From NCBI GenBank assembly GCA_965217895.1, contig CBDCJV010000002.1, positions 4,960,001 to 5,024,000 on the forward strand: a stretch of 64,000 nucleotides of DNA, in the 5' to 3' direction. Shown here in pieces: positions 19 to 62,134 of this stretch. The notes beneath the pieces are model-generated. The model searched no databases, was not told the origin of the DNA, and worked only from the letters and a program-made list of their open reading frames with translations. Origin of the DNA: Waterburya sp. Lineage in GTDB: Bacteria; Cyanobacteriota; Cyanobacteriia; Cyanobacteriales; Xenococcaceae. The position numbers and the translations under genes are program-made. Numbering within the stretch: the stretch's first letter is position 1; each line of letters starts with the position of its first letter.

Positions 19-1479
19 TTAGGCAGCAATAGCTCCGTAGTCATAAAGGTTTGAGTAATTGGGATGGGATTTAATTAAAGTAGGCTCTAGATCTAACTTG
101 TCAATAAATCGTTCAAGCAGATGGTAGTTAAGCGCACGGCGTTTGTAACTTGCCATTGAAAAAACAAAATTAGTCGAACAATTATGCTGTTGAACAGTAT
201 CCAATTTGGCAAGATTGAGCGCAGTGAGTGAAGCATTAAAATGAAAATCAAGCTTGCTTAGATCGCGAGCCTGACAATCAGCTAACCCTGTAAACTGTTT
301 ACTATCACGAAACACAAACTCGATTTGGAAGCGAGATTTATAGTAGAGATAAATCGAGTAAGCATCAAGCTCAAGATGAGTGCAAAATAAAACAGCATAG
401 CTTGAAGAAGCTGAATTATTGAGTAAATAGACTATCCGAACTTGGCGTTTAAGACTGATAGACCAAACAACGGCGGTGTAAAGATCTATACCGTTAGATA
501 ATTGAGTGACCAACTCAAAGTTATTTTGGTTGGTTAAATCGACTTTTTTGCCATACTTACGAGGTCGTCCTCTTCCTGAATATTCTTCTCGGTTGGGATA
601 ACGTAAATTGGCATCCCGTCGTAATTTTCCGATTGCTTCTAGCTTGAGGTTGGTGACTCCTTCGACCCATTTAATTTTGCTGTAGAATCCATCACTGACT
701 ACATAGCGAAGGGAGCTGGTTCACAAGTAGCAAGTAGCAAGTAGCAAGTAGCAATTTTACCTCTCGTTAAAACAAGAGGATTGAAACAAAGAAATGTGTT
801 TTATTTTTTTTCGTCTTTAAAGAGCGCAACGCTTGCGCGTTGCCAGTCGTCTTCGACGACGATCTGAGCCTTTCAGGCTCTGCGCTTTAGACCAACTTCG
901 GAGTTACTTAATTGCTATCTGTTATCTGCTACTTGTTACTTTTGCTCCAAAGGAGCTGGGTAAATAAGGAACAGTTACTTCTAATTGAGCTAGATAGTGA
1001 TTAATCCTAGTCGTTTCTGGTTGCTCATTTTTCTCTAAAGATGAGTTCTTGGCTGGTGTTTGCTGAACACTGAGGCTGTATCCCCTTTTTTTGCCTACAT
1101 CTACTACTGCCATTGCCGAAATCTCTAATCCTTTCTCTGCTCTTGATGCACTGCCGTTGTAAAAGCGATCCAGACCATAGGTTCGTTTTCCACTTTTGGG
1201 AATAAAAGAACAGTCTACCGCTAGGATTACCTCTGATTTAGAGTCAATTGCTTGCTCTATTAGCTTTTGGTTGAATTGGATGAAGTTAAAAGAACGTTGA
1301 TATTGTCGCCGATATGTTCGCTCACTGATTTGACTATAACGACTTAAGTTAACAAAATTAGCTCTACCGCAACCTACAAGCAGAGTTGAAAATAAGGTCA
1401 AGATAAATTTCTTTTGAGGATGTGTTAAATCCCCCATCGAGATCAGTAAGCTTTGTATAATTGTTTTGACGCTATCCAT
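19..1479 (-). pseudogene. DDE transposase interrupted by a 240-bp insertion
   Basis: ORFs 922-1479 and 19-513 join in frame (..PYLPSS|LRYVVSDGFY..) when 720-959 is removed, giving 406 aa. Motifs AVDCS, SDGFY and Y-x2-R-x3-E-x6-K (YKSRFQIEFVFRDSK). Confidence 0.9.
720..951. mobile_element. 232-bp non-coding inserted element with inverted heptamer-repeat arms and internal hairpins
   Basis: Flanked by direct repeat GGAGCTGG (712-719, 952-959). Left arm is (CAAGTAG)x4-CAATT and the right arm is its degenerate reverse complement. Three GC-rich hairpins lie inside. Confidence 0.85.
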
Positions 1480-3071: not shown

Positions 3072-3308
3072 ATGCCCAGTACATCGGTTTATCTACCAGA
3101 GGAAATGTCGACCAGATTGAAGAAATACTCGGATAAGGCAGATGTCAAACAAAGTACCAATAGCATTATTGTTGCTGCTCTATCAGAATATTTAGATAAA
3201 TATGAAAGTATTAAACAGTGGAGTACTGAATTTCTAGAATGGGGGGGTGAAGAAGAAACAGAAGGGTTCGAGATAGATCGTACTCCTTGGAGAGAAATTG
3301 AACTTTGA
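3072..3308 (+). CDS. RHH/CopG-like antitoxin (VapB-type)
   Basis: N-terminal beta-helix-helix pattern (TSVYLPEEM..), acidic C-terminus, strong SD, 4-bp overlap with the PIN gene. Confidence 0.7.
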   Translation: MPSTSVYLPEEMSTRLKKYSDKADVKQSTNSIIVAALSEYLDKYESIKQWSTEFLEWGGEEETEGFEIDRTPWREIEL

Positions 3309-3712
3309 AATATTTATTAGATACTACTACTGTTTCTGATTACTTAAGAAAGAATCAAGCGGTAGTGACACATCTGCATAGTACTCCACCTATTGATCTG
3401 GCTATATCTACTATTACCAAGTTTGAAATTGCCTACGGTTTGGCTAATAAGCCTAGTTTGATTGAAAAGTATCGTCATCAATTGTCCGAACTATATCAAA
3501 AAACTAATAATCTGGTGATTGATGCCCAAGTAGCAGATCTAGCGGGAAATATTAGAAGTGAGTTAAAAAATGCTGGTACGCCCATTGGCATCCCCGATAT
3601 TTTGATTGCTGCTACCGCCCGTCTCCACGGCTTAACTGTCGTCACCAGCAATATCAAAGATTTTACCAAGATCGAGAAATTGCCAGTAATTGATTGGAAA
3701 GAAAAGCTTTGA
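3305..3712 (+). CDS. vapC: PIN-domain toxin (VapC family)
   Basis: YLLDTT..S, ITKFEI, PDILIAATA and VVTSNIKDF PIN motifs. Confidence 0.9.
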   Translation: MKYLLDTTTVSDYLRKNQAVVTHLHSTPPIDLAISTITKFEIAYGLANKPSLIEKYRHQLSELYQKTNNLVIDAQVADLAGNIRSELKNAGTPIGIPDILIAATARLHGLTVVTSNIKDFTKIEKLPVIDWKEKL

Positions 3713-24704: not shown

Positions 24705-24770
24705 AAGTAGCAGATAGCAAGTAGCAAGCAAATAAACAATGTAATTAGTAATTAAAACTTGCTACTTGAG
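24705..24770. repeat. AAGTAGC/AGATAGC heptamer array with inverted partner
   Basis: aaagtagcagatagcaagtagcaagc ... cttgctacttg; same heptamer family as the arms of the 720-951 element. Confidence 0.7.
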
Positions 24771-62035: not shown

Positions 62036-62134
62036 AAGGGTTAGCTCCGCGTCCCGCTCCGCATATAGCCGCATCTAGGAGCTAATCCTTGAGGAATCCT
62101 TTACAACTACCGAACCCGAATGCTTCGCCCTTAC
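62036..62134. repeat. Hairpin repeat plus REP-like half site
   Basis: AAGGGTTAGCTCC/GGAGCTAATCCTT stem (62036-62090) and CCGAATGCTTCGCCCTTAC (62116-62134). Confidence 0.6.

Follow-up and report, generated by a model that had tools for sequence, protein, structure and literature searches.

What is the gene-less DNA that splits a transposase gene near the start of the window (the whole 64,000-nucleotide stretch of a Waterburya sp. genome analysed here), and how did it come to lie there? The interrupted gene, read on the minus strand at 19-1,479, encodes an IS701/IS4-like DDE transposase whose best NCBIfam match, below the cut-off, is the IS701 family. As the initial annotation had proposed, removal of 720-959 leaves 406 amino acids up to the first stop. 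Throughout, G000 denotes the genome of the window and C2 its contig, while other G numbers denote other genomes and L numbers denote numbered loci. The insert is not an assembly chimera, because contigs from two runs of one sample (X1 and X2) span each junction without differences (records 300-748 and 928-1,400), and contigs of X3 and X4, which carry a different organism label and belong to a different study, contain the host gene with 1 difference and a joint from 711 to 952. This joint omits exactly 240 bases and represents the empty allele, in which 8 letters are ambiguous. Three filled copies of the host IS are present in the genome; the insert would have landed once in this IS701-like element, two more identical copies having come with the host IS. 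Two toxin-antitoxin-like pairs adjoin the host IS, one at 1,562-2,789, where short ORFs lie downstream of a weak Xre/MbcA/ParS match, and one at 3,072-3,712, where a small ORF precedes a PIN-domain gene.

The element measures 240 bp (720-959) and is flanked by no target duplication. In IS605 orientation, on the minus strand, it reads TTAC|CCAGCTCC...CTTGTGAA|, with the left cut site TTAC (960-963) being unduplicated host DNA and the right cut site being TGAA (720-723). A BLAST search of G000 detected full and partial copies, and the family there comprises 28 copies of 167-363 bp at 17 independent sites, three of which are multiplied to 3, 3 and 8 copies; the further copies with the same ends that the initial annotation had suggested looking for thus exist. 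The family consensus on the minus strand is TTAC|C(N)A(A/G)CTCC-TTY-GGAG...CTACTTGTGAA|. All 27 two-ended copies follow TTAC and all 28 copies end in TGAA (end pattern with 1 mismatch allowed), and empty sites indicate the same two cut sites. A right-end search of G000 that did not demand the target returned 37 matches, 27 of them with a left arm less than 400 bp away; GTAA follows each of these 27, and in each the GGAG(C/T)T.G end is the element's own. TTAC is found at 34 of 36 distinct family sites; many of these sites came from searches whose pattern included TTAC, which leaves the 27 of 27 as the unbiased count. The background frequency of TTAC is 0.5% of strand positions.

Comparison with empty sites gave a gap of 0 for paralogues of G000 sites 337313 and 3825004, for the G000 orthologues of G019 sites L039 and L041, and for G020 at site 724221. 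At site 2007364 the gap is also 0, yet the target bases differ in relatives; a search for empty counterparts of sites 141175 and 723085 found none. The 232-bp length and 8-bp duplication originally assigned to the insert do not agree with these data. GGAGCTGG at 952-959, taken for one half of the duplication, is the element's own end and is present in all copies, and the minus-strand host sequence past the cut, CCAGCTCC at 712-719, equals the first 8 bases of the element by coincidence, as judged by homologue and site comparison. In uninterrupted homologues this position is conserved coding sequence for P-S/N-S-L. Host and element start match 8/8 at 1 of the 17 sites, and the other 16 match at 0-4 positions. 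The element ends are not inverted repeats of each other, the arms being subterminal. A MITE of a DDE transposon was considered and rejected, as terminal inverted repeats and target duplication are both lacking. A fixed target and the absence of duplication, two of the features expected of an IS200/IS605 derivative, were both found.

Alignment of 14 chosen copies revealed a common order. Next to the left cut stands a small hairpin, after which come a heptamer array, a partial left-end copy in inverted orientation, AAAG and a hairpin starting with CCTC; beyond an AT-rich spacer follow xAAT, the CCTCT...AGAGG hairpin, the mirrored array and finally TGAA. On the minus strand of the window copy, the left-end hairpin GCTCC-TTT-GGAGC (944-956) is the element's own and includes the supposed right duplication. 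It is followed in the left linker by the left heptamer arm of AAGTAGC variants (910-942), by the inverted partial left-end copy AACTCCGAAGTTGGT (891-905) and by AAAG (885-888), a putative left guide that lies 75 nt from the cut and predicts TTAC. The inner left, IPL-like hairpin is interrupted by a nested 60-bp GC-rich insert with three hairpins (824-883), absent from L036, the closest uninterrupted relative; the rest of this hairpin is TCTTTAAAGACGA (811-823). GC-rich hairpin inserts are likely later additions. Farther right are the putative right guide CAAT (780-783), which predicts TGAA and fits in the window copy, the inner right, IPR-like hairpin CCTCT...AGAGG (760-779), with a pattern as in IS605/TnpB right ends of the genus, and the right heptamer arm of four CTACTTG units on the minus strand within a 40-nt right linker (724-756). 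The inverted arms described at the outset were confirmed (717-756 against 910-949, 40 nt, 78% complementary), as were the four CAAGTAG units, the mirrored array, the three GC-rich hairpins and folding beyond chance (RNA z -6.7, DNA z -6.3).

In 14 hand-picked sequences, 89.5% of the cells of the inner hairpins are paired, compared with 37-60% in slid controls, and 27 two-sided changes were counted as opposed to 11.4 after shuffling. At the level of sequence, the comparison demonstrates two inner hairpins that are kept by compensatory changes and resemble the IS605/TnpB ends of the genus; L122 and L009 have a single inner hairpin. The left-end hairpin and the inner inverted copy covary family-wide, with a mean perfect complement of 7.95 compared with 6.56 +/- 0.34 when shuffled (19 combinations), and pair weakly in the window copy. 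In the fold of lowest predicted energy the two arms are paired with each other, an arrangement that would keep the cut sites away from the guides, and in the folding prediction this arm pairing competes with pairing between the left end and its inverted copy. We also observed a small insert, ACATGCGG...CCTTTGT, that recurs exactly at the foot of IS605-like hairpins (L233, L318, L328, L334 and L331, G000 copies 337313 and 2503167, and the coding IS605 end L085) and looks like a repeat targeting IS605-like palindromes.

In IS608, guide base 1 pairs with target base -3, base 2 with -4 and base 4 with -1. This register was applied to the four bases preceding the inner left hairpin and calibrated on coding tnpB elements (30 loci), where a tetramer that fits is located 14-26 nt before the hairpin in all 24 readable cases, the chance value being 0.23. 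Across the genus we found four guide/target classes, AAAG/TTAC, AAGA/TTAT, GAAG/TCAC and CAAG/TGAC; the IS608 pairs given in parts of PMC3201880 and PMC5934647 are AAAG/TTAC and GAAT/TCAA. Inner motifs alone fetched 36 loci, 26 of them readable, and the guide fits the target in 23 of the 26, with element-start patterns that were adjusted after the loci had been viewed. The fits comprise AAGA or AAAA with TTAT (14, including the coding element L207), AAAG/TTAC (7) and GAAG/TCAC (2), and the misfits are L227, L233, which has an insert after AAA, and L237. The left-end motif fetched 29 loci and added the CAAG/TGAC class, with three copies in G062. An inner guide was readable in 11 of these loci and fits in all 11, for a motif that fixed the last two target bases only and a set in which 6 of the 11 loci repeat the inner-motif set; the outer AAG preceding the arm fits the target in none of the 11. 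The covarying classes represent a handful of lineages rather than independent draws, so that the Fisher P value for the inner-motif set is overstated, and the boundary of the TTAT class rests on three G026 copies and L207. A search for an empty site of that class found none.

Of the 17 G000 sites, 11 carry AAAG as inner tetramer and the other 6 carry TGCG or GCAG, all after TTAC. As for the right guide, 5 of the 17 sites have CAAT, which fits TGAA (the window copy among them), and the remaining 12 (GAAT in 11, AAAT in 1) misfit at -3 only. The site with 8 copies holds 5 different inner sequences, indicating that inner sequence can change after insertion, and such change may explain the exceptions. 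A second functional guide is possible, because GCAG also precedes the hairpin of the tnpB element L283. Read from these alignments, the left guide predicts the target by the IS608 rule, and target choice through base pairing between inner guide and target is likely. The initial suggestion that the element selects its target by pairing thus survives in altered form, with the 4-nt guide at 885-888 as the probable agent and the GCTCC/GGAGC complement as a one-off. Extended element-target pairing as a general rule was rejected upon the 17-site comparison.

We consider it probable that the element is a non-autonomous, PATE-like IS605 derivative moved in trans by a Y1 TnpA. It would be a deletion derivative of an IS605-group transposon, transferred as single-stranded DNA by a Y1 (HUH) TnpA supplied from elsewhere and inserted 3' of TTAC without duplication, with TGAA at its right end. 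TnpA would bind the two inner hairpins, and the four bases before each would pair with the cut sites. The linkers, which measure 71-132 nt on the left and 27-90 nt on the right at the 17 G000 sites (75 and 40 nt in the window copy), would loop out, perhaps aided by the inverted left-end copy, which would place TTAC beside the guide. The heptamer arms likely invaded tolerant linkers as passengers and would have become mirror-matched by template switching between arms, and the helper transposase would now be absent from G000. Counting against this explanation are the break of the inner left hairpin by the 60-bp insert in the window copy, the six G000 sites with TGCG or GCAG in place of AAAG, the 12 right-guide misfits, the predicted pairing of the arms and the lack of an intact TnpA in G000.

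The family shares with the IS608/IS605 group insertion 3' of TTAC without duplication, AAAG before the left hairpin and xAAT before the right one, as described in portions of PMC3201880, PMC5934647 and PMC3597680, and a left linker longer than the right. It differs from IS608 in being gene-less, in its right cut TGAA with an often misfitting guide, and in having linkers that hold paired heptamer arrays and an inverted left-end copy and far exceed the 19 nt on the left and 10 nt on the right of IS608 (excerpts of PMC3201880 and PMC5934647). According to part of PMC3597680, linkers of 15-16 and 8 nt are usual family-wide, and IS608 tolerates 27 and 20 nt with some loss. Compared with the usual lengths of about 15-19 and 8-10 nt, the linkers of the present family are too long. 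L225 has a left linker of 21 nt.

Like the PATEs of Haloquadratum, as portrayed in sections of PMC3119063, the elements are short and non-coding, cause no target duplication, contain palindromes related to IS605 ends, have core deletions between palindromes and carry palindromes invaded by small repeats. Absence of coding sequence, of duplication and of terminal inverted repeats were all found here. Haloquadratum PATE palindromes are near-terminal (20-50 bp variable end) and without inverted repeats in that partial account (PMC3119063), whereas those of our family lie deep inside and are accompanied by subterminal inverted heptamer arms. We use the label PATE-like because in the window copy 75 and 40 nt separate the IS605-like palindromes from the ends. 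PATEs are also known in some cyanobacteria, as cited in a passage of PMC4853749. REPINs and their RAYTs are similar in that small non-autonomous hairpin DNA is thought to use a Y1 enzyme (PMC3116915, in part), but our family is not a REP doublet and has a fixed tetranucleotide target. The RAYT-like gene of G000 is frameshifted and its flanks differ. The tnpB-only IS605 elements of the genus (L207, L282, L297, L283 and L198) have the same GG(G/T)TT-guide-CCTC left motif, right hairpin and guide rule; they differ in coding for TnpB and in left linkers of 18-22 nt, a heptamer array being present in L283 only, on the left side. Cyanobacterial STRRs and SDRs likewise feature heptamer arrays and GC-rich nested hairpins; in our family these belong to a larger element whose ends are defined.

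Among the coding relatives, the tnpB element L207 shares the inner left motif, its AAGA being 21 nt away from TTAT. In L086 (G005), an intact IS605 element with both tnpA and tnpB, 23 nt separate TTAC from AAAG; L080 in G019 is another intact IS605 of the genus. The tnpB element L283 (G005, 1337-2735), 1395 bp long, opens with TTAC|CAAGCCCTTCGGGC followed by a heptamer array and has an ordinary right end with no right arm; it may be a parent or a hybrid. The right-hairpin pattern matches both the family and canonical GAAT...TCAA IS605 right ends, one of them behind a tnpB fragment (L198), and kinship to coding-IS605 hairpins was found at both the left and the right. Y1 matches were obtained in 4 of 5 relatives searched. 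No intact IS605 TnpA was found in G000, where 9 TnpA queries gave only short weak matches. The sole Y1 match there is a frameshifted gene (G000:C2:2354798-2355330, L001) followed by GTAG-type palindromes, which we read as RAYT-like. G000 has one TnpB, with ends that differ from those of the element. An autonomous partner with the same ends, which the initial annotation had asked for, was not found carrying tnpA in Y1 and TnpB searches of G000, at the Y1 loci of five relatives, in GTDB and metagenome scans or in pattern searches. One pattern search gave three matches outside the genus, with 3 mismatches each, and its reversed control also matched in 3 genomes. The strict left end is present in 5 of 39 genus genomes, and the variant left end has matches, not all of them full elements, in 19 of 39 other genomes. 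Of 15 stretches returned by the GTDB and metagenome left-end scan, 9 were chance matches in other phyla; the others belong to Pleurocapsa, Waterburya, two Calothrix and an unclassified cyanobacterium.

The linkers of different family members are filled by six heptamer types. In 17 of 19 cases the best pairing partner of a left arm is a right arm of the same type, L227 being a tie and one arm of L215 missing. L108 has the same ends and core as the family and both arms swapped. Among the 28 G000 copies, six hairpin loops are found in either orientation, a sign of template switching (PMC8604942); we therefore attribute the mirror match mostly to template switching and regard the arms as likely passengers. 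As the initial annotation had supposed, heptamer arrays do travel as the arms of a discrete non-autonomous element (28 copies, 17 sites). Among 116 arrays of this heptamer class with at least 2 units in the genome, 49 lie inside family copies, supporting spread by the element; 61 array loci lie outside the family, so it is not the source of all of them, and at 53 of these the flank is multi-copy. The two relatives proposed within the window, 24,705-24,770 and 62,036-62,090, contain none of three family motifs, and the former array belongs to a MITE-like family with a single array.

At least three such small MITE-like families, recognised by eye, have a single CTACTTG array each, of 2-32 units at a fixed inner position, with the ends TATAGC..GCTATA, TATAGTC..GACTATA and TAAACC..GGTTTA (e.g. 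G000:C2 662706, 3182293, 890893 and 3997357). In L319 (G001), a copy of our family, a long TTTATCC array and the end of a MITE-like family take the place of the right part. Right-end-only remnants with CAAT/TAAT, the hairpin, a short heptamer run and TTGAA occur in several genus genomes (L177, L181, L184, L185, L182 and L191). Sister families (L212, L215, L217, L220 and L276; L317, L333 and L336) have other cores, GGCAGAG or GGCAGGA arms, TTAT or TGAC targets and apparently other right ends (TTAT, TGAC).

A bolder version, which we regard as doubtful though conceivable, sees a widespread cyanobacterial class of IS605 miniatures and takes the linkers to be folded DNA modules, with the inverted left-end copy carrying the cut to the distant guide, arm pairing acting as a mobility switch, arrays seeded across genomes and the element retargeted naturally at least three times through changes of its guide letters. 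Such seeding or exchange of STRRs across genomes would be suggested because the arms adopt the host's own heptamer.

The arms would also be functional if the long heptamer stem itself were bound by TnpA, the preceding AAG serving as guide and the right linker consisting of the 8-nt tail. At 17 of 17 sites the distance between the end of the outer AAG and the cut is 19-21 nt, which is the family-norm geometry, the arms stay mirror-matched, the 58-nt copy L107 lacks both inner hairpins, and the six sites without inner AAAG could be covered. We nevertheless judge this improbable, as the outer tetramer fits the target at 7 of 17 G000 sites and at none of the 11 loci where the inner one fits, TTAT-class copies are without such an outer guide, and no guide is offered for TGAA. 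Another proposal holds that an independent inverted-heptamer frame captured an IS605 core and spread by a repeat-directed route not involving TnpA. Elsewhere in G000 there are indeed two loci at which inverted arrays of other heptamers enclose a small gene, and searches of this genome found TnpA to be absent, yet those gene frames carry none of the family motifs, the insertion sites are TTAC rather than repeat runs, and the target follows the inner guide. We think this route quite unlikely for the spread of the element; such a frame may still account for the origin of the arms. The two frames, at G000:C2:3012300-3012780 and 1097650-1098100, enclose small four-helix-type ORFs.

Very little speaks for a structured RNA, whether derived from a CRISPR repeat or not, that would spread by way of an RNA intermediate. 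There is a weak CRISPR-DR9 match at 748-787 (20.4 bits compared with a gathering score of 45), and the plus strand gave a slightly better RNA fold in 6 of 11 copies folded; however, the full 40-mer occurs only within family copies, the chromosome has no GGATTGAAAC arrays with repeat spacing, and 748-787 is the IS605-like right hairpin read backwards. An Rfam search gave 8 matches at E<=10, none near the gathering score. A CRISPR repeat was rejected, no repeat-spacer array with the same repeat being present. Least credible of all is a MITE-like element of 232 bp that duplicates 8 bp of its target and owes its movement to a DDE transposase or to GCTCC-GGAGC pairing, a version that draws on the 8-mer on both sides in the window and the 8 ambiguous letters of the empty allele and that is refuted as a family rule by the 8-mer being the element end in all copies, the gap of 0 at empty sites, the match at 1 of 17 sites and the lack of terminal inverted repeats, although likeness to the 8-mer possibly aided the window insertion alone.

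No prior description of this architecture was found in the openly accessible literature searched. The element involves neither a new enzyme nor new chemistry; its unusual feature is a putative guide whose distance from the cut is roughly fourfold the usual one, the space between being taken up by paired heptamer arms that travel with the element. Four guide/target classes on one small scaffold provide natural guide-target variants, and the long linkers suggest that TnpA operates across distances four to nine times the textbook length, which bears on how the transpososome is built. For part of the cyanobacterial heptamer repeats, the family provides a concrete vehicle, accounting for 49 of the 116 arrays of the class, most of the others adjoining repeated sequences.
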